The notes below the pieces were generated by a model. It was not told the origin of the DNA. It made no database searches and saw only the letters and a program-made list of their open reading frames with translations. A program made the translations under genes and the position numbers. This document shows positions 3,156-52,557 of a stretch of 64,000 bases of DNA, in pieces. How positions within the stretch are numbered: the first letter of the stretch is position 1; the number at the start of each line of letters is the position of its first letter. The DNA is from a virus. The stretch covers positions 103,510 to 167,509 of IMG/VR virus record IMGVR_UViG_2716884767_000001. One strand, given 5' to 3'.

Positions 3156-3389
3156 ATGAAAACTATTGTACACCATGAACATTTTCCTTATAGATATGTT
3201 GAGTGTGGAATACTTGAAATCAACGATGAACCAGATTATCGTATTCAAAAATATAATCAATATTCTGATAGATATCAGAACATGTATTATTGTGATAATC
3301 GCATGCAATTCGATACAGCCATAGAAGATTTTGAGTATACAAAATGGTTAGATCCTGCAGGTGTTCCATGTTATTCTAAAAATACATGA
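3156..3389 (+). CDS. Hypothetical cyanophage protein
   Basis: 77-aa ORF directly after the promoter, overlapping the next gene. Confidence 0.65.
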
Positions 3390-28120: not shown

Positions 28121-31100
28121 ATGGCGACGCCGATACGAATTAAAAGATCTGCAGTTTCTGGTAAGAAACCACAGAATATAGATTTACAAGTAGGAGAATT
28201 AGCTCTTAATACATACGATGGATCCCTTTTCACTAAGAGAGACACAGGTGGTGTAGGGATAGCAACGACAGTAAGTAATATTACACCGTGGGTAGAGAAT
28301 TTTGGTGGGACATCAATAAATTATTCGAGTGGTAATGTTGGTATTGGAAGTGATATCCCAACATCGAAATTAGATATTAATGGATCTTTAAATGTATCTG
28401 CAGGCGCTACATTTGCTGGTGACATAACTGCTAATGGAAATATAGTAGGTGATGATTCAACAAATATATCTGGTATCAGTTCTGTAACTGCCACAAATCT
28501 TTATGGTGCTTTAACGGGAAATGTTCAGGGTAATCTAACTGGAACAGTTCTAACTGGTGCTCAACCAAATATAACTTCATTAGGAACTCTAGGTTCATTA
28601 AATGTAACTAATAAGATTACTGCTAATGATTTTGAGTCTACAGTATCGACAGGAACTGCACCATTCGTAGTCGCATCCACAACAAAGGTAACAAATTTAA
28701 ATGCAGATTTATTAGATGGTAAATCTACAGCAAATAGTAATGTCGGAAATAGTATAGTTATTCGTAATGCTGCTGGAGGATTTATTGCAGGTGATGTAAA
28801 TTTCCAAAGTATAGTTGGAACTGCATTGTCGGTTTCTGGTATATCAACCTTTAACAGTGGTGTAGGTATTGCTGATTCAATATTTAATATTGAACATCCA
28901 AATACTGCAATCAGATTTCTTACTGAAGAAGTCGCAATTGAAACTGCTGGCACGGAAAGACTTCGTATCACATCATCAGGTGAAGTTGGTATTGGAACTA
29001 TAAGTCCAGCATCAATGTTTCATATACACTCTGGAGTACCAAGAATTACAATGAGTGATAGTGGAACTGGAGTTCATCACAAAATTAATGCGGACTCTTC
29101 TGTTGGTAATTTTGCATTTGATGTTGATTATGATTCCATCACTTCCACTCCTGCATTCATAGTTAATATTAAAGATGGGGAAAAACTTCGCATCACATCA
29201 ACAGGTAAAGTTGGTATTGGAACTGCGAATCCAACAGCACATCTTCAAGTTTATAGAGCAACTCAATTTGCAAGTAATCCAATAATTCAGGCAAGATCTA
29301 ATAATGGAAGCACCAATGAATTAAAATTTGAAATTGATGGTGATGGTGATGCTTATTTTAATGGTAAAGTTGGTATTGGAACTCTTGTCCCATCTCATGA
29401 ACTGACTTTATTTGGGGATGATCCCATAATTGAAATTCTAGAAAAAAGTGTTAGTTCAAAAGTCACAATAGGTACAGGAACTGTTCAAGGTTTTATAAAC
29501 ATTCAAAAAGCTGATGGAACAAGAACTGTTCAAATAAGCAGTGATGGTAATAGTTATTTTAAAGGTGGTAAAGTTGGTATCGGAACTAATGATCCATCAG
29601 CAATATTTGATGTTACAGATGGTACAACAAGAATATCTTTTAATAGAACAAACAATACACCACGAATTGATTTTAAATCAAATAATGTTGCAGATTTATG
29701 CCAAATAAAAGCATCAGAATCAGTTGGTGGTGGAGTCCTACAAGTTTTTACCAAAACTACTGGCGGTACTTCTACAGAAAGAGTTCGTATCTTATCTGAT
29801 GGAAAAGTAAAGATATGTCATGTTGATGGTGAAAACCCTACTGAACCTCTTCATGTAGTTGCAACTGCGGTCAATCAGGATATTGCAAGATTTACAGGTG
29901 CAAATAGAGATAGAGGGTTAGTAATAAGCACTGGTATTTCTGGAATAACAAATGATGCAGTTATTAAATACAATGCCGATTCTCAAAATAGTGCTGGACA
30001 ACATGTATTTTTGACAGATGGAATCGAAAGACTTCGCATCGATTCAAGTGGTAATTTAAAAGTTACTGGAATAGCTACCTTTGATCAGAATGTATCAATT
30101 GGTGGTACATTAACATATGAAGACGTAACAAATATAGATTCAGTTGGCATTATTACTGCAAGAAGTGGTATTAAGGTGACTGCTGGTGGTATCAACGCTG
30201 TTGGTGTTGTAACTGCTACTCAGGCAGATATTGGTACTGGTGGATTAGATGTAGACGGTACAACAGATTTAGATACTCTTAATGTTTCTGAAGTTTCTAC
30301 ATTCAGTGATAAAATAGTCGTAGATACCAGCAATGTATCAGAATTTAAAGGTAATGGAAGAATAAAAATAAGTGGTGCTACTCAAACCACCAAATTACAT
30401 TTACAGAGAGGCAGCACTTCCGATGTTGCAATGAGATTTGAAAATAACCATGGTAGTATTTACGCTGGACTCGCTGCTGGTTTTAATAACAATCAAAGAT
30501 TTATTATTGGACTAGATGCTGATTTATCTGATGATCCAATATTAATAGCTAATGAAACCAAGCATGTAATTGTTGGAAGTTCTACTACTGGTGCTACCTT
30601 TAGTGGTGCAACTGGTGATGCAAAAATCACTGGTATTTTAACAGCAACATCATTCTCTGGTTCTGGTGCAAGTTTGACAGGACTAACTGGTGCATCTGCA
30701 AACACTTACGGTAATTCCAATAATACTCCAGTAATCACTGTCGATGGTAATGGTAGAATTACTACTATCACAACTGCCTCAATTTCTGGTGGAGGTGGAA
30801 ATGTTGCAGGTATTGACACCACGGGCACATCAGTTTTTAATACTTTAGATATAGGTGGAGATATAGATGTAGATGGTCATACTGAATTAGATAATTTAAA
30901 TGTAACTGGTGTCTCTACCTTTAATCAATTAGCTACTTTTAGTAATGGTATAAACATTCCAACCAATAAAACAATTGGATTGGGAGATACTACTAGTGCA
31001 ACTATAGAATATAATTCATCGGGTGTGATGAATAGGTTGAATAAACATGGTGCGGATGATTTTACATGGAAATTGGAGGATCAAGCTGGAACTATGCATA

Positions 31101-34100
31101 TGGAAGTTAGGTCTGGTACAACTAACTCATATGTTCAATTAAGACAAAATGGCAATATCAAATTTGAAACAAAGGATTATGGTGTTGAAATAACAGGAAC
31201 CACTGATACTGATCAATTAAATGTATCTGGTGTTTCAACTTTAGGTGGAAAAGTAAGAATTAATAATACTGATTTAACTACTAGTTCTTCTGCTGATGAA
31301 TTAATTATTGGAGATACAAGTGGTAACAGAGGACTAACGATTTTCTCAGGAACATCTAACACTGGAAATATTTTCTTTGCTGACACATCAACCACTGGTG
31401 TTGGAAATAGAATGGGAACCATTACTTATGATCACAGTGATAACTATATGAGATTTTCCACGAGTGGAAATCAAGAAAAACTTCGTATCGTATCAGATGG
31501 TAAAGTTGGTATCGGACTTACTAATCCAGATGGTCAATTACACATTTCTTCTGGAACATCTGGTGATTGTCGTGTTTACATTGAGGCAGACGCAGACAAT
31601 AATGCCGAGGGAGACAATCCATTTATTATCTTCAAAAATGATGGAGGGATAGAAAATGCTTCTGTTTGGTGTGGAAATACTGATGGTGGCACTAATGACA
31701 ATAGTTTAAATCTTTCTGCATCAACATCTGTTAATGGTGGTATTAGATTTTTCACTGGTGATACTGATGGTGATTGGGAAACAGCAGATGAGAGAGTTCG
31801 TATCACACCAGATGGAGAACTTTTAATAAATGCAGTCACTGAGAGATCATACGTTGATGGTGCTGGATTTACTCAAACTCCCAAACTACAAGTAGAATCA
31901 AATAGTAATGTCGATACTGCAATATCATTAAGATATAATTCTGGTGGTGGTGCTGTTGGACGAAGAGCATCATTTATTTTTGCAAGAACTGCCGATGGAA
32001 GTGCAGTGTCAAATAACAGTGTTTTAGGTGAAGTTCTCTTTATGGGAGAGGGCAACAGCACTCTCGAAAAAGCAGCATCCATTCGTGCAGAAGTTGATGA
32101 AACACCAGGCACAAATGATATGCCTGGTAGATTGATATTTTCTACAAGTGCTGATGGTTCGGATTCTCCGACAGAAAGACTTCGCATCGATAAAGATGGA
32201 AAAGTTGGTATCGGAACTGATTTAACTACCACCCCATCATCCACTTTAACCGTAGCACCTCATAACTCAGCTTCTGGTCGTAATATTTCAATCTATACAA
32301 GTGGTGCTGTTGGTAATAAAGCAGGTCTATTTTTCAATTCGACTTCAGGAACTGGAAACCTAGCAGAAATTCAAGCAGAATATAAGGGAACTAATGAAGG
32401 TGAATTAGTTTTAAGCACTTCGATGCAGAAACGACTTACTATCAATAAGGATGGTAATGTTGGTATCGGAACTGATGCTCCAGGTGCTGCCCGACTTAAA
32501 GTTGTACACGATGGTCTTGATCAAGTAATACAGCAGTGGGGAGGTGCTCAAGGTCCAACTGCTGGCCAGAGATTTATGGAGTTGTATTCTCCAGCGACTG
32601 ATAATGCGAATGATTACTTCAGATTCCAAACAGGTAATGCATTTAAATTTAGAATTGACAACACAGATGCATTAGCAATGAATTCAAGTGGTAATGTTGG
32701 TATTGGAACTGATAGTCCACAGTCAAGATTATATGTGCTTGGAGATGCTCGTATTACTGGTATACTAACTGTTGGGCAAAGTTCTCTAACATTAGATGGA
32801 GATAATAATATAGTCAATGTAGGAACAGCACTAACACTTGGTCATACACAAGGTGTTCAGTTCCATACACAAAATTTACATGCTTCTGGTTTTGAGGTTA
32901 ATCAGATAAATGCAACAGGAATTATAACTGCCAATACATTTAAAGGTGCACTGACTGGTAATGTTACTGGTACTGCAACACTGGCATCAGGATTGACAGG
33001 TACACCTAGCATTACAGTTCAGGATATTACCGCTGAAATGGTTTCTATTGGTGGAACATTAACATATGAAGATGTAACAAATATAGATTCGATTGGTATA
33101 ATTACTGCGAGAGATAATATAAAGTTAACAGCAGCAGAAGGTCAAATAGAGGCAACTGGTTCAACTGGACTTACCTTAAATGCTTCAGATGGTTCTGCCT
33201 TTGCAAGAATCAGAGTGGCAGGAGATACTAGACTTCACATCACATCAGATGGTAATGTTGGTATCGGAACTGCCACAGCACCTCATTTGTTAAGTGTTAA
33301 GGGCACTATCTCTAAGATATCTAGTACATCTGGAATACAATTAGTAAATATAGCAAATGATGCATCACAAAATGGAACAATTGCAATAAATCAATCTGGT
33401 GGAACAGAAAGAATAAAATTACATTCTAGTGGTGCAAGTTATTTCAATGGTGGTAACGTTGGTATTGGAAGTGCTGTTCCATCACAGAAATTAGATGTTG
33501 CTGGTAATATAAAAGCTACTGGACAAGTAAGGGTATCTGATGGAACAACTGCAGAACCAAGTGTAGCAGCAGCATCTGATACTAACTCAGGATTGTATTT
33601 TCCTGGTGCTGATGCTGTGGGATTAGTTGCTGGTGGATCTCGAAAATTATTAGCAAATTCAAGTGGTGTAACAATTAATAATGGTGATTTAGCAGTTAAT
33701 GGTGGTAATTTAGATGTTTCTGAAGACATAAGACATATTGATAATACAAATACAAAGATATCATTTACTAGTAATACAATATCATTTGATACTGCAGGAG
33801 ATGAAAGACTTCGCATCACATCAGGTGGTAAAATAGAAGTCAAAGGAACTCGTGCAGGTTCTTTACAAGCAAGTGATGATGATACATTACAACTTTATAC
33901 TGCAAGCACTAATAATAATATCGACAGAGGAGCAGGTATAACTTTCTATAATCACGATAATAGTGGTTATGAGATGGGTGGAACCATTCAGGTAGCAAAA
34001 GAGAATGGAACTGCTGATGATGTAGCAGCATATATGAGATTTTCCACACGACCTGCTGGAGGATCTGCAACAGAAAGACTTCGCATCGACTCAGATGGTA

Positions 34101-37100
34101 AATTACTTATCGGTATAAATGCATCAACATCTGGTGATGGGCAGTTACAGTCATTTAAACCTACTGGTAATAATAGCACAGTTGTAGTTGGTAATGTTGC
34201 CACAGCTGCTGATGGTCTAACTAGAGTAGATTTTTGCCCATCAAACAGTACTGTTGGAGCAAGAATAGAATGTCATGCTACTGAAGATTTCTCAACAGTT
34301 GCAAAACGAACAGCAGATTTAGTTTTCGTCACAAGAAAAGACGGGACACATTCTGAAAAACTTCGCATCAACTCTGATGGTCGCTTATTACTGAATGATA
34401 TTTCATCAAGGGTTGTTGCTAATATCACTGCTCAACTTCAATTAGAAGGAACAACAGCAAATACATCTGCTATTTCAATTACAAGAAATTCTGATAATGC
34501 GTCTCCACCATATCTAAGTTTTGGAAAATCGAGAGCAACTTCTACTGGCGGTACTACTATTATCCAAGATGATGATAATTTAGGGGAGATTAGGTTTAGT
34601 GGTACTGATGGTAATGATTTAACTAATCATGCTGCAAGTATTAATGTAGAGGTAGATGGAACACCTTCAAATAATGTTACACCAGGTCGTTTGATATTCA
34701 GCACTGCAAGTGGTTCTGATGCAACAGAAAGACTTCGCATCACATCAACAGGTTTGTTGCAAGGTACATCAGGTCAACACGATGGAGGACTTGAGTTACT
34801 GTCTGGAAATAATAACCAATCAACAAGATTAAGAATACAATCAAAAAGTTCAGGTGGAACTGCTTATAACTGGTATCTCGACTCCGCACGTAGTGCTGAT
34901 AGATTTACTATTCATGATGGTTCAACCAGTTGGTTTACAATATTAGGAACTGGTTATGTTGGCATTAACGAAACCAGTCCAATTTATGCACTATCAATAG
35001 GAATCAACACTGGAACTGCATGGGATTCAACAAAAAATATATCTAACACAACAAATAATGACTTTATAGGATTAAATCTAACCAATTCAAATTCAGCAGC
35101 TAACGCTGAAGTGGGAATACTGTTCCAATCAACCACTAGTGGTGCGGGACAATATAGTATAAATTGTAGAAAATCTGCTGGTAGTCAAGCTGATTTAATT
35201 TTCAGAACAAGAGATGGTGGTGCTGCAAGTAAAGAAACACTTCGCATCGCATCTGATGGTCAAACAACTGTAAGTTCTACTTCTAACCAACCTTTAGTTC
35301 TAAACAATACAAATGCTAATGGGCAATCAAGTATTTCTTTCCAAAGTGCTGGTTCAACAAAATATAATTTGGGAAGTAATAAAGATGGTGATGGTAATAT
35401 AGATTTCTTTATCTATGATCAAATTAATAGTGCACACAGATTTAATATAAAAGCAGATGGTAATATCGGTATCGGAACTGATAATCCAACAAATAAACTT
35501 GAAGTATATGGAACTGATGCTGCAGTAACTTTATTAAATTATGGTCAATCAAGTGGTGGTCTAGCTGCTTGGCCAAGCGGAAGACTTGCATTTGTTTCAG
35601 CACATCAGAATGATGATTTAGTATTTGGTTACTCTAATAGCACACTGCAAGTAGAAAACTTTGTTGAAGCAATGAGAATTGATAATGGAACTGGTAAGGT
35701 TGGTATCGGAACTATTAATCCAGACGAACTACTCCATCTTTTTTCAGCATCTAGTGATTCAAAGATAGTATTAGAAGCAGGTAATAATTCTGCTGTTAAT
35801 GGAATATTTTGGAATGATGAAAATAGTAATACACAATCTGAATTCTATTATTCACATCCTGATAATAAACAATTTTTAAAATTTAATGGTAATGGTCTTG
35901 AGATTTATTCAAATCAAACAAGCTCGACAATTGCAAAGGTTGGTCATGGAATTGGTTATAATGAAGTTGTAATACCAAACGGTAAAGTTGGTGTCGGAAC
36001 TGATGATCCTAAAACGGATCTAGATGTTCGAGGATCTATTAGTATGCTTGATTCTCTAGTGGCACCCCATGGTGGTACAGTCACCTATGCTGTCACTGTT
36101 GCAGCTAAAGTAAATCACAGATATCCTGCTGGTAGTCAGTCCAGTTCAAATGCTTTTTATATTGATGGTATTGAGTCCCCTGTTCTTACTCTAACACCAG
36201 GTAGAACATATAGATTTACACATGATAATACTGGAAGTCATCCACTCAAATTCTACCACCAAGCAGATAAAACAACATTATATACATCAGGTGTAGATTT
36301 CCAAAACACATATACTGAGATAACAGTTACTAAGACAACTCCAAGTGTTTTATATTATCAATGCACTGCTCATGATCGCATGGGTAATGCTGTTATTACA
36401 AATTCAGAGGGACTTTACCACGTAGGTGTTTCTACCTTTACTTCAGTTATTCATGCAAACAATGGAATTAAATTAACATCTTCTGATAATAAGAGTATAA
36501 TATTAGGTGAACATGAAGACATGCGTATGAGGCATACGGGTAGTCATTCGGAGATAACTGATGAGGGAACTGGTAGTTTAAGACTTGGTGGAGATCAAAT
36601 AGTAATAGGTAATGCTGCTTTTGATGAAACTAACGCAGTCATTAAACAGGGAGCAACAGGATATGTTGTATTAAAGCAGAATGGAAATACAAAATTAACA
36701 ACAACTAACACTGGAGTTGTCGTAACGGGAATCCTAACTGCAACATCATTTAAAGATGCTAATGGAAATACGATTGGTGGTGGAGGTGGAGGTGTAACAG
36801 TTCAAGATGAAGGTAGTGCATTATCAACCACAGGAACTACACTTAACTTTGTAGGAAATGGTGTTGTTGCATCAGGAACTGGAGCAACTAAAACAATTAC
36901 TATTTCAGGTGGTGGTAGTGGTGTAACAGTTGGTAATCAAGGTTCTGATTTATCCACATTAGGAACAACTCTGAACTTTGTGGGTTCTGGTGTTGTTGCA
37001 TCAGGAACTGGAGCAACTAAAACAATCACAATTAGTGGTGGTGGAGGTGGAACTGGTGGTAAGTTTGTAGAAAACGCAACTGGTATTCATACTTTAGGTA

Positions 37101-37756
37101 ATGTTGGTCTTGGAACAACCAATGCAAGCGAAGCAATATTAAACATTAGTACTGGTGCTGGTGTAACTGATACAGTTGCATTAGATATTCAAGGAACTGA
37201 GGGATCATTATTCAGTGTTACAAATAATCTCACAAGTGGATCACTATTTTCGATTAACGATGTCAGTGGTATTCCTGCCTTTGATTATAACGCTAATGGT
37301 AAAATATCCATGGGTGCTTTTGCCGACACCGTTGCGATAGGAAAAACCAGTAGTGGAGTTAAACTTGGAGTTAAAGGTAGTATAACTGAGGGTGTTCATA
37401 TTGTCGCAAATAAACTTAGTGCTGCACCAAATATCAATGTTGACAATGGAAACGTACATTTATTTACAACAAATGAAACAACGACTGCGACACCAAACGT
37501 AACTTCAACTGTTGGACTTAATACATCAATGGATACTGGTGATACTTTAACTGTTGTTATAATTTCAAAACCAAATAATGCTGGATACTATGCAGAGTTA
37601 ACAATTGATGGAGTTGCTCAAACAGAAGAATGGTTGGGTGGAAGTGCACCATCTAGTGCAAGTTCAGATGGATATGATGTAAATACATACAATGTCATTA
37701 AAACTGGTGATGCAGCATACATAGTTCTAGCAAATAGTGTAAACTTCTCAAACTAA
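28121..37756 (+). CDS. Giant modular tail fibre protein (3211 aa)
   Basis: N-terminus IRIKRS...GELALNTYDG; many ERLRITSxGxVGIGT junctions; Gly/Thr/Ser-rich; C-terminal domain ending YNVIKTG. Confidence 0.85.
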   Translation: MATPIRIKRSAVSGKKPQNIDLQVGELALNTYDGSLFTKRDTGGVGIATTVSNITPWVENFGGTSINYSSGNVGIGSDIPTSKLDINGSLNVSAGATFAGDITANGNIVGDDSTNISGISSVTATNLYGALTGNVQGNLTGTVLTGAQPNITSLGTLGSLNVTNKITANDFESTVSTGTAPFVVASTTKVTNLNADLLDGKSTANSNVGNSIVIRNAAGGFIAGDVNFQSIVGTALSVSGISTFNSGVGIADSIFNIEHPNTAIRFLTEEVAIETAGTERLRITSSGEVGIGTISPASMFHIHSGVPRITMSDSGTGVHHKINADSSVGNFAFDVDYDSITSTPAFIVNIKDGEKLRITSTGKVGIGTANPTAHLQVYRATQFASNPIIQARSNNGSTNELKFEIDGDGDAYFNGKVGIGTLVPSHELTLFGDDPIIEILEKSVSSKVTIGTGTVQGFINIQKADGTRTVQISSDGNSYFKGGKVGIGTNDPSAIFDVTDGTTRISFNRTNNTPRIDFKSNNVADLCQIKASESVGGGVLQVFTKTTGGTSTERVRILSDGKVKICHVDGENPTEPLHVVATAVNQDIARFTGANRDRGLVISTGISGITNDAVIKYNADSQNSAGQHVFLTDGIERLRIDSSGNLKVTGIATFDQNVSIGGTLTYEDVTNIDSVGIITARSGIKVTAGGINAVGVVTATQADIGTGGLDVDGTTDLDTLNVSEVSTFSDKIVVDTSNVSEFKGNGRIKISGATQTTKLHLQRGSTSDVAMRFENNHGSIYAGLAAGFNNNQRFIIGLDADLSDDPILIANETKHVIVGSSTTGATFSGATGDAKITGILTATSFSGSGASLTGLTGASANTYGNSNNTPVITVDGNGRITTITTASISGGGGNVAGIDTTGTSVFNTLDIGGDIDVDGHTELDNLNVTGVSTFNQLATFSNGINIPTNKTIGLGDTTSATIEYNSSGVMNRLNKHGADDFTWKLEDQAGTMHMEVRSGTTNSYVQLRQNGNIKFETKDYGVEITGTTDTDQLNVSGVSTLGGKVRINNTDLTTSSSADELIIGDTSGNRGLTIFSGTSNTGNIFFADTSTTGVGNRMGTITYDHSDNYMRFSTSGNQEKLRIVSDGKVGIGLTNPDGQLHISSGTSGDCRVYIEADADNNAEGDNPFIIFKNDGGIENASVWCGNTDGGTNDNSLNLSASTSVNGGIRFFTGDTDGDWETADERVRITPDGELLINAVTERSYVDGAGFTQTPKLQVESNSNVDTAISLRYNSGGGAVGRRASFIFARTADGSAVSNNSVLGEVLFMGEGNSTLEKAASIRAEVDETPGTNDMPGRLIFSTSADGSDSPTERLRIDKDGKVGIGTDLTTTPSSTLTVAPHNSASGRNISIYTSGAVGNKAGLFFNSTSGTGNLAEIQAEYKGTNEGELVLSTSMQKRLTINKDGNVGIGTDAPGAARLKVVHDGLDQVIQQWGGAQGPTAGQRFMELYSPATDNANDYFRFQTGNAFKFRIDNTDALAMNSSGNVGIGTDSPQSRLYVLGDARITGILTVGQSSLTLDGDNNIVNVGTALTLGHTQGVQFHTQNLHASGFEVNQINATGIITANTFKGALTGNVTGTATLASGLTGTPSITVQDITAEMVSIGGTLTYEDVTNIDSIGIITARDNIKLTAAEGQIEATGSTGLTLNASDGSAFARIRVAGDTRLHITSDGNVGIGTATAPHLLSVKGTISKISSTSGIQLVNIANDASQNGTIAINQSGGTERIKLHSSGASYFNGGNVGIGSAVPSQKLDVAGNIKATGQVRVSDGTTAEPSVAAASDTNSGLYFPGADAVGLVAGGSRKLLANSSGVTINNGDLAVNGGNLDVSEDIRHIDNTNTKISFTSNTISFDTAGDERLRITSGGKIEVKGTRAGSLQASDDDTLQLYTASTNNNIDRGAGITFYNHDNSGYEMGGTIQVAKENGTADDVAAYMRFSTRPAGGSATERLRIDSDGKLLIGINASTSGDGQLQSFKPTGNNSTVVVGNVATAADGLTRVDFCPSNSTVGARIECHATEDFSTVAKRTADLVFVTRKDGTHSEKLRINSDGRLLLNDISSRVVANITAQLQLEGTTANTSAISITRNSDNASPPYLSFGKSRATSTGGTTIIQDDDNLGEIRFSGTDGNDLTNHAASINVEVDGTPSNNVTPGRLIFSTASGSDATERLRITSTGLLQGTSGQHDGGLELLSGNNNQSTRLRIQSKSSGGTAYNWYLDSARSADRFTIHDGSTSWFTILGTGYVGINETSPIYALSIGINTGTAWDSTKNISNTTNNDFIGLNLTNSNSAANAEVGILFQSTTSGAGQYSINCRKSAGSQADLIFRTRDGGAASKETLRIASDGQTTVSSTSNQPLVLNNTNANGQSSISFQSAGSTKYNLGSNKDGDGNIDFFIYDQINSAHRFNIKADGNIGIGTDNPTNKLEVYGTDAAVTLLNYGQSSGGLAAWPSGRLAFVSAHQNDDLVFGYSNSTLQVENFVEAMRIDNGTGKVGIGTINPDELLHLFSASSDSKIVLEAGNNSAVNGIFWNDENSNTQSEFYYSHPDNKQFLKFNGNGLEIYSNQTSSTIAKVGHGIGYNEVVIPNGKVGVGTDDPKTDLDVRGSISMLDSLVAPHGGTVTYAVTVAAKVNHRYPAGSQSSSNAFYIDGIESPVLTLTPGRTYRFTHDNTGSHPLKFYHQADKTTLYTSGVDFQNTYTEITVTKTTPSVLYYQCTAHDRMGNAVITNSEGLYHVGVSTFTSVIHANNGIKLTSSDNKSIILGEHEDMRMRHTGSHSEITDEGTGSLRLGGDQIVIGNAAFDETNAVIKQGATGYVVLKQNGNTKLTTTNTGVVVTGILTATSFKDANGNTIGGGGGGVTVQDEGSALSTTGTTLNFVGNGVVASGTGATKTITISGGGSGVTVGNQGSDLSTLGTTLNFVGSGVVASGTGATKTITISGGGGGTGGKFVENATGIHTLGNVGLGTTNASEAILNISTGAGVTDTVALDIQGTEGSLFSVTNNLTSGSLFSINDVSGIPAFDYNANGKISMGAFADTVAIGKTSSGVKLGVKGSITEGVHIVANKLSAAPNINVDNGNVHLFTTNETTTATPNVTSTVGLNTSMDTGDTLTVVIISKPNNAGYYAELTIDGVAQTEEWLGGSAPSSASSDGYDVNTYNVIKTGDAAYIVLANSVNFSN
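28955..36001 (+). repeat. Dispersed in-frame junction repeats GAAA(G/A)ACTTCG(C/T)ATC and GGTAA(A/T)GTTGGTAT(C/T)GGAACT
   Basis: 12 copies of the first (e.g. 28955, 29180, 30026, 32174, 33803, 34073, 34355, 34727, 35234) and more than 10 of the second (e.g. 29204, 29363, 29567, 31499, 32453, 33251, 35693, 35981). Confidence 0.85.
30092..33112 (+). repeat. Two copies of a 72-nt module (VSIGGTLTYEDVTNIDS[VI]GIITAR)
   Basis: 30092-30163 and 33041-33112. Confidence 0.85.
36791..37048 (+). repeat. Tandem duplication of a 129-nt (43-aa) unit
   Basis: GVTV...TTLNFVG.GVVASGTGATKTITISGGG twice, starting 36791 and 36920. Confidence 0.9.
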
Positions 37757-49118: not shown

Positions 49119-49126
49119 TATAAATA
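49119..49126 (+). promoter_or_regulatory. T4-type late promoter
   Basis: TATAAATA 25 nt before gp26. Confidence 0.8.
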
Positions 49127-49151: not shown

Positions 49152-49871
49152 ATGCCATTACCAAAAATTGCAACACCGACATATGAGTTGGTTTTACCTT
49201 CTTCTGATCGAAAAATAAAATATCGACCATTTTTAGTTAAAGAGGAGAAGATATTGATTATTGCAATGGAATCTGAAGATCAGAAACAGATAACGAATGC
49301 AATTAAAAGTGTAATTAATAATTGTATATTATCAAGAGGAATTAAGGTTGATAAATTATCTACTTTTGATATTGAATATCTCTTTTTAAATATAAGGGGA
49401 AAATCTGTTGGTGAGAATGTCGAAGTTCTCATTACATGTCCTGATGATGAAAAAACACAAGTTCCTGTGATGATTCCACTTGATGAAATTAAAGTTCAAA
49501 AACATCCTGATCATAACAAAGATATAAAATTAGATGATAATTTAGTATTAAGAATGAAATATCCTTCTTTATCAGAATTTATAAAAAGTAATTTTGATTT
49601 AACTGGTAATATTGGAGTTGAGGAGTCATTTGATTTAATTATCTCATGTATTGATCAAATATACAATGAAGAAGAATCTTGGACATCTGCGGATTGTACA
49701 AAAAAGGAAATGGTTGAGTTTTTGGATCAATTAAATTCAAAACAATTTAAAGAGATTGAAAATTTCTTTGATACCATGCCTAAATTGTCTCATACCGTTA
49801 AAGTGACGAATCCAGAGACAAAGGTAAAAAGTGATATCGTTTTAGAAGGGTTATCGTCTTTTTTCGAGTAG
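49152..49871 (+). CDS. gp26: Baseplate hub assembly protein
   Basis: MPLPKIATPTY, KYRPFLVKEEKIL, DIEYLFL.IRGKSVGE, FFDTMPKL. Confidence 0.9.
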   Translation: MPLPKIATPTYELVLPSSDRKIKYRPFLVKEEKILIIAMESEDQKQITNAIKSVINNCILSRGIKVDKLSTFDIEYLFLNIRGKSVGENVEVLITCPDDEKTQVPVMIPLDEIKVQKHPDHNKDIKLDDNLVLRMKYPSLSEFIKSNFDLTGNIGVEESFDLIISCIDQIYNEEESWTSADCTKKEMVEFLDQLNSKQFKEIENFFDTMPKLSHTVKVTNPETKVKSDIVLEGLSSFFE

Positions 49872-49900
49872 GTATGGCTCATGCGAGTTTAGAGTCATAC
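49859..49900 (+). other. Predicted -1 programmed ribosomal frameshift signal
   Basis: T TTT TTC heptamer (49859-49865), 6-nt spacer, 9-bp hairpin GTATGGCTC/GAGTCATAC. Confidence 0.65.
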
Positions 49901-50053
49901 TATAAGATTAACTTTGCTTTGATGCAGCACCATAAATATTCATTAACAGAGATTGAAAACATGATACCATGGGAAAAAGATGTGTATATTGCTCTTTTAG
50001 AACAATATATTGAAGAAGAAAACTTAAAACAAAGACAACAAGGTAATGGATAA
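49874..50053 (+). CDS. gp51: Baseplate hub assembly catalyst (short form, 59 aa; probably also expressed as a gp26 fusion)
   Basis: Hand-translated MAHASLESYYKINFALMQHHKYSLTEIENMIPWEKDVYIALL... Confidence 0.85.
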   Translation: MAHASLESYYKINFALMQHHKYSLTEIENMIPWEKDVYIALLEQYIEEENLKQRQQGNG

Positions 50054-51395
50054 CTCTCCAGCATATGAAAATTTTAGTAATAAGATGACTTCAATGCGAG
50101 GTGGTGTTGGTGGTAGCCCTATTTTAAAGAGAAGAAAGATAAATGCAAATAAAGTTTTTAATAGAGAAGGGTCAGATCCTCTTGTCAAGCAAATAGAAAA
50201 AAACTCAAGAGAGATAGTTTTATTAAAAAACGTCGTTATATTAAATACTAATCGAGTTTCTCAGATATTAGTAAATGACGCTGAGAGAGAAAAGTCAATA
50301 CAAAGAGAAGCACAAAGAAAACAGATATTAAAAGATGAAAAAGACAAATCTAAAAAGAAGGAGGGATTATTAGAAGGTGTTGGTAAATCAATAAGTAAAA
50401 CTCTACTTAAACCTGTAGAGGCAGTTGGTAAAACTGTGAAGGGTGTATTAGGTCGATTATCTGATGCTTTTATGGCACTCTTTGCTGGATTTATAGCAAA
50501 TAAGGGAATTAAAATGATTCAGGCACTAATGTCTGGTGATACTGAAACATTTAAAAAGATGAGAAATACAATAATTAAGTCAGTCGCAGTGGTTGGTGGT
50601 ATATTTCTTGCTTTAAATGGTGGTCTGTTGGCATTGCCTGGCATTATATCTGGTGTGGTAAGTGCTGTTATTTCTATTGGTGGTGCGATACTGGGATTTC
50701 TGGCAAGTCCAGCAGGATTGATTGCACTTGGATTAGCAGCTGGAGTTGGTGTTTTATTTGCCATGAAAAAAGGTATTGATGCTGGAAGAGATTATGCAAC
50801 TGGTGGTGCAGCATTTACAGAAAAACATGATGTTTTGGATCAAAGACTAATAGATGCTGGTATGACATTAAAAGGTGAAGTTCTTACTGGTAACACACAA
50901 CAAAAAAGAGCTGGAAAAGGTCCAAAAGGTAAAAGAAGTGCAGAACAGGAAAAAATATTTCAAGAAGTTCAAGCACAACGTAAGGTTTTAAATGATAGTC
51001 ATACGAAAATGGATGCAGAGGTTAAGCAAGCACAGGAAAATGCCGAACCTGATTCATACATAATGAAAAGAGTTGGAAAGAAAAGAATAAGAGTCCCTGT
51101 TGTTAGCCAAAAGAGAAAAAATGAGATAAAAAATGAAATTGAATCAAAATATTACAATCGTCTCAGAGGTGTAACAACATCTCCTAATATAAACTCAGTT
51201 CCTAAAAAAGTAAGTGTCTCCACACTTAATGAAGCACCTCCAAATATTGTGGATGCAACTACGAATGTAGGTGGTGGTTCAGTTGGAACGTCTGGTAGTG
51301 GAAATCTAGCATCTTCAGTTCCAAATATATCTGCATCAAATTCTGATAATAATTTCACATTATACTCACAAACTCAATACAATATTTTAGTATAA
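50046..51395 (+). CDS. Tape-measure/baseplate hub-like protein
   Basis: Helical, with a central Gly/Ala hydrophobic stretch; directly follows gp26/gp51. Confidence 0.5.
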   Translation: MDNSPAYENFSNKMTSMRGGVGGSPILKRRKINANKVFNREGSDPLVKQIEKNSREIVLLKNVVILNTNRVSQILVNDAEREKSIQREAQRKQILKDEKDKSKKKEGLLEGVGKSISKTLLKPVEAVGKTVKGVLGRLSDAFMALFAGFIANKGIKMIQALMSGDTETFKKMRNTIIKSVAVVGGIFLALNGGLLALPGIISGVVSAVISIGGAILGFLASPAGLIALGLAAGVGVLFAMKKGIDAGRDYATGGAAFTEKHDVLDQRLIDAGMTLKGEVLTGNTQQKRAGKGPKGKRSAEQEKIFQEVQAQRKVLNDSHTKMDAEVKQAQENAEPDSYIMKRVGKKRIRVPVVSQKRKNEIKNEIESKYYNRLRGVTTSPNINSVPKKVSVSTLNEAPPNIVDATTNVGGGSVGTSGSGNLASSVPNISASNSDNNFTLYSQTQYNILV

Positions 51396-51396
51396 T

Positions 51397-52557
51397 ATGG
51401 CAGCATCAGCAGTTTTACAAATCGGAGCAAAAATAGCATCAAAGTCTGCAGGTGCAATGAAGGGTGTCGCTAAAAGTAGTAAGAGATTGACAAAATCTGT
51501 ACAAAAAAATATTAAAATTAAGAAAAGACTGAGAGCTACTTCTGAAAGATTTCAAAAATTTAGAGAGGAAAGAAAAAAAAGACAGGAAAGGGAATCTCTT
51601 TTAGAACAAGAAAAATCTCAAAAAAAGGGAGAGGGTCAAAAAACAAAAGGAACTTCTGGAAAAGGACCATTAGAAAGATTAATGTCACTCATTCAAATAC
51701 TTTTGGTTGGATTTGTGCTTAATAAATTACCTCAGATTATTGATTTTATCAAAAAAGTAATTAAAGTAATTCGTGATATTGTAGATAAATTTAAAGCATT
51801 TTTTGATGGTGTGATTGGATTTTTTAAATCTATTGGTAAGGTTATTGGAAAAGCTTTCGATGTTATATCAAACTTAAATTTTAATGATATTGGAGATAAA
51901 ATTAAGGGAGCATTTGGAAAACTAAAAGATGCATTTACTAATATAAAAGATAAACTTTTAGATGGTGTTAAGAGTTTTCTTGGATTAAAGAAGAAAAAAG
52001 TAAAAAAAGAAATAAATCGAGAGTTAACAGATAAAGATTTAAAGGATAAAGAACTTAAATCAAGTGTCAGTGATGTTCAAAAAACTATGGCATCAAAATC
52101 TGATGAATTTAATGATACAATAAAAACAATTGAAAAGGCAGGAACAGGTGTTGATATTGTCGGACCTGAAAATTCTAATTTAACTGAGCAAGTTCAATCA
52201 ACCATCACTAAAGAAAGTGATGGAAAACCTACAAGTTTAAAAATGGAGGGATCTTCTATCGGTAAATCAGGTAGTGGTAAGTTTACTATTGTAAGAGAGG
52301 ATGGATCCACAACAACTGACTTTAGGGAGATTAAAGCAGCAAAAGAGGCATATCAGTTAAATATAAGTAAACCTAAAAAAACAGTGAGCACGACCACAAT
52401 CACACCAGAGAGGAAATCTAAAAATACTGTAATGATTGTTGGAAACAAAGGTGGTCAGTCTCAATCACAAGGAGGAATGAGATCTAAAGGTAAAACTAAG
52501 ATTGTAGTTCAAAAAGATAACAGTATTAAAGATCAATTCGCCTTATCTCTATTTTAA
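51397..52557 (+). CDS. Second tape-measure-like protein
   Basis: Lys-rich helical regions with a hydrophobic segment; baseplate operon. Confidence 0.45.
   Translation: MAASAVLQIGAKIASKSAGAMKGVAKSSKRLTKSVQKNIKIKKRLRATSERFQKFREERKKRQERESLLEQEKSQKKGEGQKTKGTSGKGPLERLMSLIQILLVGFVLNKLPQIIDFIKKVIKVIRDIVDKFKAFFDGVIGFFKSIGKVIGKAFDVISNLNFNDIGDKIKGAFGKLKDAFTNIKDKLLDGVKSFLGLKKKKVKKEINRELTDKDLKDKELKSSVSDVQKTMASKSDEFNDTIKTIEKAGTGVDIVGPENSNLTEQVQSTITKESDGKPTSLKMEGSSIGKSGSGKFTIVREDGSTTTDFREIKAAKEAYQLNISKPKKTVSTTTITPERKSKNTVMIVGNKGGQSQSQGGMRSKGKTKIVVQKDNSIKDQFALSLF

Follow-up and report, generated by a model that had tools for sequence, protein, structure and literature searches.

Is the small open reading frame (ORF) annotated as gp51 in T4-like cyanophages a gene of its own, or is it the second part of a protein begun in the preceding gene, gp26, and entered through a -1 ribosomal frameshift? 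The question is raised by a 64,000-nt stretch of viral DNA (hereafter, the window; positions 103,510 to 167,509 of IMG/VR record IMGVR_UViG_2716884767_000001), which is part of a complete 210-kb virus record and whose closest DNA relatives are T4-like cyanomyoviruses, such as P-SSM2 and S-SKS1 (73-74% nucleotide identity). An initial annotation, made from the letters of the window alone, had described the gp26/gp51 junction as a -1 frameshift cassette equivalent to the lambda-type G/GT tail assembly chaperones. Our analyses lead us to consider it highly probable that the end of gp26 carries a programmed -1 frameshift site, which is predicted to give rise to a short and a long chaperone in a G/GT-like manner. 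The elements of the site, in window numbering, are as follows:

49152-49871, plus strand: gp26 gene (PF12322), encoding the zero-frame short product of 239 aa with the C-terminus ...GLSSFFE and a stop
49845-49850, plus strand: Shine-Dalgarno (SD)-like purine block GAAGGG, approximately 9-10 nt 5' of the heptamer, a possible dnaX-type upstream stimulator
49859-49865, plus strand: slippery heptamer T_TTT_TTC (X_XXY_YYZ type, in zero-frame register, codons TTT and TTC), a putative site of tandem tRNA-Phe -1 slippage
49866-49871, plus strand: 6-nt spacer GAG TAG, which holds the zero-frame stop; none of the 78 aligned relatives departs from this spacing
49872-49900, plus strand: stem-loop with the arms GTATGGCTC (49872-49880) and GAGTCATAC (49892-49900), 9 bp including one G-U pair, and an 11-nt loop
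49865-50053, plus strand: -1 frame part of the predicted transframe product, RVG followed by the 59-aa 'gp51' or Gp51_C domain (from translation)

The gp26 protein matched Pfam family PF12322 (T4_baseplate) over its full length (E 1.1e-75, profile positions 2-219 of 219) as well as phrog_150, 'baseplate hub' (E 7.5e-83), and its gene is the sole PF12322 gene of the 210-kb genome. The 3' end of the gene reads TCT TTT TTC GAG TAG. Read in the -1 frame from position 49865, the sequence RVGMAHASLESYYK... (F-F-R-V-G-M-A-H...) runs into the annotated 59-aa gp51 ORF (49874-50053, stop at 50053), the product of which matched phrog_634 (E 7.8e-29) and also the C-terminal end of phrog_150. The predicted long form joins 49152-49865 to 49865-50053 and comprises 238 + 62 = 300 aa, with the junction ...GLSSFFRVGMAH...; its predicted trypsin peptides are ...SDIVLEGLSSFFR and VGMAHASLESYYK, and the short form would be recognized by the C-terminus given above. 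The heptamer, the spacer and both hairpin arms lie exactly where the initial annotation had placed them, its junction peptide and its fusion of about 300 aa agree with the translation, and the gp51 AUG (49874-49876) does sit inside the 5' arm of the hairpin, in which it had been described as buried.

Could such an arrangement have arisen by chance? RNAfold extended the stem by a tenth pair (G49871-U49901) and yielded -12.7 kcal/mol in a 47-nt context (z -2.8, 2 of 200 shuffles folding as well). When a 67-nt context was folded, the hairpin was modest and unremarkable (z only -0.8), and the window holds 36 copies of TTTTTTC against 33.6 expected, so the heptamer in itself is not rare. Both observations suit an accidental arrangement, i.e., a T-rich Phe-Phe end in an AT-rich genome that happens to precede a small ORF in an overlapping frame, with no recoding. 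Since the heptamer alone is no rarer than chance predicts, the case for frameshifting rests on comparison; all of the comparative results contradict the accidental origin, which the pattern of conservation effectively refutes and to which we assign a negligible probability.

For the comparison we used 80 IMG/VR loci whose gp26 proteins share 69-85% amino acid identity with that of the window, making 81 sequences with the window itself. The heptamer TTTTTTC is identical and identically spaced (one sense codon, then the stop) in 80 of the 81 (79 of 80 loci and the window). Wherever the sequence extends into the gp51 ORF (77 loci and the window, 78 in all; two loci end earlier), the gp51 homologue is in the -1 frame. 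The sole locus lacking the heptamer arrangement is an in-frame fusion (L069, see below). The start of the open -1 frame coincides with the heptamer in three loci. In a codon alignment of 78 unique gp26 genes, the third base is without variation in only 7 of 238 columns. Met or Trp codons account for four of these, and the heptamer, with its three consecutive codons, for the rest. The codon preceding the Phe pair always ends in T (tcT, agT, aaT, gcT, gaT), though the amino acid varies (Ser, Asn, Ala, Asp), and the pair itself is fixed as TTT-TTC; elsewhere in gp26, TTT makes up 74% of Phe codons. As judged from these codon columns, the conservation of the heptamer is a matter of selection on nucleotides, not on protein.

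Outside this set, T_TTT_TTY together with a -1 frame Gp51_C ORF was also found in P-SSM2 and in seven non-cyanophages (of Sinorhizobium, Vibrio, Aeromonas, Stenotrophomonas, Pseudomonas, Ralstonia and Acinetobacter). Vibrio nt-1 and Stenotrophomonas BUCT608 carry T_TTT_TTC, and Sinorhizobium phiN3 and Ralstonia RSP15 carry T_TTT_TTT (a T7 run), each of the four with a stop/start overlap of the TGATG/TAATG type. In Pseudomonas Astolliot, T_TTT_TTC is followed directly by the stop, and the annotated start, the only ATG, lies inside the conserved domain. Aeromonas Ah1 (T_TTT_TTC; L084:3717-3900) and Acinetobacter SH-Ab 15599 (T_TTT_TTT, T7; L095:3235-3420) possess -1 frame Gp51_C-like ORFs that have no ATG and are unannotated in their GenBank records; thus, in three distant phages (Ah1, Astolliot and SH-Ab 15599) no ATG precedes the conserved domain. 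A search for related loci with the Vibrio nt-1 gp26 returned only 2 loci, so that clade is sampled no wider. At the protein level, 97 of 105 gp26-family representatives (50%-identity clusters) end in FF or FL plus 0-3 residues. Twelve of the 105 end in F-L plus one residue rather than in F-F; read from the protein ends only, these would fit T_TTT_TTR, as in phage P2.

The position of the gp51 start codon suggests another explanation, namely two genes joined by translational coupling, in which ribosomes stop at the gp26 TAG, melt the hairpin and re-initiate at the AUG 2 nt further on to make a free 59-aa gp51, with TTTTTTC merely encoding Phe-Phe. A group of observations favors it and weighs against frameshifting as the only source of the small domain. 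The gp51 ATG lies 2 nt after the gp26 stop in 72 of 79 relatives, a distance that permits termination-reinitiation, and the overlaps TGATG and TAATG are common in distant lineages, as in phiN3, nt-1, BUCT608 and RSP15. Vibrio phage D509 and the near-identical K-series phages (L093:3180-3440) read CTT TTC AAG TAA, with no heptamer, and have a Gp51_C-like ORF that begins at an overlapping TAATG; in this lineage, the small domain may be made separately as a free-standing protein. Moreover, the AUG is enclosed in the hairpin, the sole clade devoid of the hairpin is also devoid of the ATG, and public records all annotate two coding sequences. Coupling nevertheless leaves unexplained why the only invariant synonymous sites of gp26 are the three of the heptamer, including the wobble position of the variable codon that precedes the Phe pair, and why conserved Gp51_C ORFs persist without a start codon. 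On the tree, the ATG was lost three independent times (to CTC, CTA/CTG and TTG), and the ORF of about 60 aa is still intact and highly conserved; in the clade of locus L030, the interval from the preceding -1 frame stop to the conserved domain contains no ATG, GTG or TTG. Independent lineages with start-less intact Gp51_C ORFs number at least five (the L030 clade, L063/L079, Ah1, Astolliot and SH-Ab 15599), and the heptamer is, in the sequences at hand, more widely kept than the gp51 start codon. A natural in-frame fusion and the fused state of T4 gp51, both described below, are likewise left without explanation by coupling. Hence, we regard coupling in place of frameshifting as unlikely, though it could operate alongside the frameshift, and gp51 may then be initiated separately or by coupling in addition to being read in the -1 frame. 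The proposal of the initial annotation that gp51 is not a free-standing gene in the window is likely correct on the sequence evidence, tempered by the ATG retained in most relatives and by the one Vibrio phage group that has an ATG and no heptamer.

The hairpin provides evidence of a different kind. Across 71 distinct sequences, 92% of the hairpin cells are paired, as compared with 19-46% when the partner is slid by 1-3 columns. Most stem positions are also under coding constraint and hence little informative. The informative pair is col51-col65. On the 5' side it uses the third, synonymous position of an Ala codon, and on the 3' side the middle base of a codon varying among Glu, Ala and Val; of the 71 sequences, 28 have U-A, 26 G-C, 12 A-U and 5 no pairing. 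A tree made from the part of gp26 that precedes the heptamer gives at least 16 state changes for this pair, only 3 of them to a mismatch, showing that it was compensated many independent times (at least 13 switches among U-A, G-C and A-U). One clade argues against a stem that is needed everywhere: in L030, L040, L041 and L051 (approximately 3208-3254), the 5' arm has been replaced and folding is lost (-2.7 kcal/mol, z 0). The same clade, in which the heptamer and an intact Gp51_C ORF persist, lost the gp51 ATG (now CTC) along with the 5' arm. This joint loss of stem and ATG suggests that the stem may both stimulate the slip and hide the internal AUG. The stem is accordingly not strictly required, and masking of the AUG may be its task instead of, or besides, stimulation of the slip.

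Upstream of the heptamer, a second nucleotide preference became apparent. The Glu codon of a conserved Glu-Gly, located about 9-10 nt 5' of the heptamer, is GAG in 66 of 78 genes (85%) versus 30% elsewhere in gp26. With GAG at this position the sequence reads GAGG/GGAGG (GAGGG in most relatives), while the window carries the weaker GAAGGG. In the -1 shift of E. coli dnaX, an SD-like element acts as a stimulator from about 10 nt upstream of A_AAA_AAG, and a hairpin lies downstream. By analogy, the purine block may serve as an upstream stimulator of the slip at the end of gp26. Both sites are built of three parts, an SD-like block some 10 nt ahead of an X_XXY_YYZ heptamer, the heptamer itself and a stem-loop behind it (6 nt away in the window); they differ in the heptamer and in the protein family, and in dnaX the shifted frame meets a stop almost immediately and the product is shortened, whereas the shift in the window would extend it.

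The same signals bear on transcriptional slippage, according to which RNA polymerase would stutter on the T6 run and insert an extra U in some transcripts, creating the in-frame fusion at the RNA level. The signal is indeed a homopolymer (T6 here, T7 in phiN3, RSP15 and SH-Ab 15599), and one added U gives the same fusion as the ribosomal shift. However, a ribosomal X_XXY_YYZ site is indicated by hallmarks that transcript slippage does not need: position 7 is always C, the run keeps its zero-frame register, the spacer is 6 nt throughout and the hairpin covaries; moreover, efficient slippage by bacterial RNA polymerase generally needs runs of about 8-9 or longer. We consider this route very improbable and retain ribosomal frameshifting as the preferred explanation.

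If the two ORFs encode one polypeptide, phages in which they are joined in the genome might be expected, and such a case does exist. A complete 236-kb IMG/VR record (L069:2501-3394, identical with P0001) carries an in-frame gp26-gp51 fusion of 297 aa (...LTSFWLGMAH...). Its junction is 2 nt shorter and bears several substitutions, the fusion is the only PF12322 gene of that genome, and the fusion protein is recorded from two contigs. This phage would make the long form only, unless another route yields the short one. A second, apparent fusion of 299 aa, on an ENA polished long-read contig of 215 kb (L090:3001-3900; P0002), results from T7 in place of T6 together with a 1-nt deletion in the stem; it is possibly real, or else a homopolymer or assembly error. 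PF28602 (Gp51_C), a recent Pfam family that covers the small domain, was matched on natural fusions.

Phage T4 offers a second view of the same pair of proteins. In T4 gp51 (249 aa), which also carries PF28602 (Gp51_C), residues 1-201 match PF12322 (E 3.9e-52), and the last 45 or so are homologous to the gp51 of the window (BLASTP E 2e-6, residues 211-246; phrog_634), whereas T4 gp26 (208 aa) ends in ...GLKEFFELL, which aligns with the end of the window gp26, ...GLSSFFE. These domain and end alignments imply that the zero-frame product has its T4 counterpart in gp26 and the transframe product in gp51. The T4 genome has two PF12322 genes, whereas a single one was counted in the window genome, in that of L069 and in each of nine further phage genomes that were checked. 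In T4 the paralogous genes 26 and 51 are divergently transcribed, and no slippery site is found: the 3' end of gene 26 reads GAG TTC TTT GAG..., i.e., its Phe pair is TTC TTT. Thus, going by the alignments, the difference is that T4 obtains the short and the long form from two genes, and phages of the window type from one gene plus a predicted slip. T4 gp26 and gp51 are both listed as hub assembly chaperones, and gp51 is described as a protein of unknown function that is essential for assembly and is not part of the particle (PMC3004832). Separately, T4 gp26 (gene 26, L085:3806-4429) weakly matches phrog_1140, 'baseplate hub distal subunit' (the gp28 family; E 9e-4, residues 32-141), and gp28 may be a further, distant relative of gp26.

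Do these proteins also resemble the tail assembly chaperones (TACs) of other phages? AlphaFold2 models of the natural fusion (pLDDT 88.7) and of the window gp26 (pLDDT 94.1) were each aligned to 48,161 representative PDB chains with no Foldseek prefilter. The only three chains with Z of at least 5 were 3fgx_B (7.7 with the natural-fusion model, 7.8 with the gp26 model), 2ob9_B (7.5 and 7.6) and 3klu_A, YqbN (7.2 and 7.3); the fourth hit scored 4.8 and 5.0, and rank 50 of the gp26 search had a Z of 2.8. Each of the three top chains aligns over 85-86 residues (rmsd 3.9-4.2) with gp26 residues 1-96. The second is described as 'bacteriophage HK97 tail assembly chaperone', and exactly these three structures (3fgx, 2ob9 and 3klu) are the ones reported as phage TACs (PMC9603447). 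A Z of 7-8 is a common best-hit score for the tool, and a value below 8 is inconclusive if taken alone; the match carries weight because of its specificity and because the hypothesis predated the search. Residues from about 97 to 235 of gp26 form an extra domain with no clear structural match.

Several sequence and structure searches did not point to TACs, and they count against the equivalence. Foldseek against the PDB and AFDB Swiss-Prot gave no match at E of 0.001 or below, the matches in BFVD were confined to viral proteins of the gp26/gp51 families, none of them named TAC, a sequence/profile search of the PDB gave no match, and NCBIfam contributed nothing useful. None of 125 family members matched the Pfam Phage_TAC families at E up to 10, and a comparison of the gp26 family with the HK97 gp13 family (PF06222) by hhalign returned a probability of 0.2%, which means that sequence support is absent, not that homology is excluded. 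The analogy with lambda G/GT is therefore supported by layout, by the equivalence to the T4 chaperones and by the modelled fold, and not by sequence; of what the initial annotation had claimed on this point, the chaperone fold of the N-terminal 95 residues or so of gp26 speaks in favor, and the link to TAC families at the sequence level was not found.

As in lambda gpG/gpGT and HK97 gp13, the two proteins of the window would begin identically and diverge at a -1 slip close to the 3' end of the first ORF (here read from sequence signals), and the gene lies just ahead of candidate tape-measure-like genes. The N-terminal domains have the TAC fold in common (Z 7.3-7.8), and both the role in assembly and the absence from the particle are known from T4 (PMC3004832). 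The shared part is about twice as long in the window (239 aa, with the extra domain at about 97-235), the long form gains only about 60 aa, and there is no detectable sequence similarity to TAC families. A further difference is the heptamer itself, U_UUU_UUC in the window versus G_GGA_AAG in lambda. For HK97, gp13 and its -1 frameshift product are annotated in NC_002167, and the structure is 2OB9. For tail assembly chaperone genes, conservation of the -1 frameshift is reported by Xu, Hendrix and Duda in 2004 (Mol Cell 16:11; ref. 38 of PMC9024508). The tail chaperone genes of phage P2, E and E+E', reportedly use T_TTT_TTG (Christie et al. 2002). In this myovirus, a U-rich heptamer of this type stands at the 3' end of the chaperone gene; E belongs to another sequence family.

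From the signals and their conservation, from the covarying hairpin, from the homology with T4 gp26/gp51 and from the matching fold, we infer a course of events in which the slip, its rate, the binding partners and the part played by the SD-like block are the predicted elements. Most ribosomes would read TTT TTC GAG and stop, releasing the 239-aa short form. A fraction would pause over the stem-loop that starts 6 nt past the heptamer, possibly helped by the SD-like GAGG about 10 nt upstream, and both Phe-tRNAs would slip back by one base on U_UUU_UUC. The shifted ribosomes would then read RVG and the 59-aa Gp51_C domain to complete the 300-aa long form. The two products would be the counterparts of the baseplate-hub assembly chaperones gp26 and gp51 of T4: their shared N-terminal part most likely holds the tape-measure-like protein or proteins encoded just downstream, the rare long form would dock that complex through its C-terminal domain as the hub and tube are initiated, and neither form would end up in the virion. 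The -1 frameshift cassette of the initial annotation is thereby upheld, given the nucleotide-level selection on the heptamer, the covarying hairpin, the intact gp51 ORFs of the start-less lineages and T4 gp51 as the full-length equivalent. The conservation that it had proposed to check is also there, since the heptamer and the -1 frame relation are kept in relatives and a hairpin pair covaries.

A broader reading, towards which we lean slightly, is that the gp26/gp51 proteins (PF12322) are the missing TACs of the whole T4 superfamily, that the ancestral and widespread route to them is a G/GT-type -1 shift on U_UUU_UUY, that T4 and its close relatives exchanged the shift for a gene duplication (26 short, 51 long), and that the hairpin has a dual role. 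To our knowledge, T4-like phages have so far been treated as being without the frameshifted chaperone pair that is found in nearly all other long-tailed phages. Full-text searches of the literature, which do not extend to subscription-only papers, retrieved no paper tying gp26/gp51 to a frameshift, a slippery site or TACs, and none of the GenBank/RefSeq records inspected joins the gp26 and gp51 ORFs. Hence, the frameshifted TAC pair is of a known type, encountered here in a phage superfamily for which we found no report of one. If this reading is true, the chaperone scheme known from long phage tails holds for the T4 superfamily as well, and a testable model follows in which gp26 is the G-like form and gp51 the GT-like form; it would also explain the 'catalytic' action of T4 gp51 and its absence from virions. 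Hundreds of cyanophage and other T4-like genomes would then be mis-annotated, in that 'gp51' is either listed as a 59-aa gene of its own or missed altogether, and the family would be a natural example of one function met in three ways, by frameshift, by in-frame fusion and by gene duplication.

The genes following the cassette are two candidates, tied to tape-measure proteins by weak leads:

50046-51395, plus strand: next gene, 449 aa, tape-measure-like candidate (phrog_28, tape measure, E 0.0035; Atlas T4_Tape_measure cluster 0.89)
51397-52557, plus strand: second downstream gene, 386 aa, tape-measure-like or tail-protein candidate (phrog_1204, tail protein, E 1.2e-5; Atlas T4_Tape_measure cluster 0.90)

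The T4_Tape_measure cluster was the only named Atlas neighbour in the feature search. The downstream genes, described as tape-measure-like in the initial annotation, are weakly so by these leads, a point against the comparison with lambda. The 449-aa gene starts 8 nt before the end of the gp51 stop (50046-50053, ATGGATAA), and this overlap suggests that its translation is probably coupled to ribosomes reading the -1 frame. In phiN3, nt-1, Ah1, BUCT608 and Astolliot, the cassette is followed by a protein of 570-700 aa with no assigned family, and the 568-aa protein downstream in phiN3 matches tape-measure phrogs at about 4e-5; this synteny of cassette and large protein is absent from RSP15 and SH-Ab 15599.

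Upstream of gp26, the window contains a possible promoter:

49119-49126, plus strand: T4-type late-promoter-like motif TATAAATA, 26 nt 5' of the gp26 start, equal to the T4 late-promoter consensus

T4 late promoters are well established, and the promoter reading of TATAAATA rests on them; the motif occurs in 5 copies in the window versus 10 expected by chance and is not significant alone. No TATAAATA late-promoter motif lies between gp26 and gp51 in the window. Many marine DNA metagenomes contain the stretch, and in RNA runs 5-9% of the sampled words were present, kept as contigs. Elsewhere in the window, a single ORF of 3211 aa occupies positions 28121-37756 on the plus strand.

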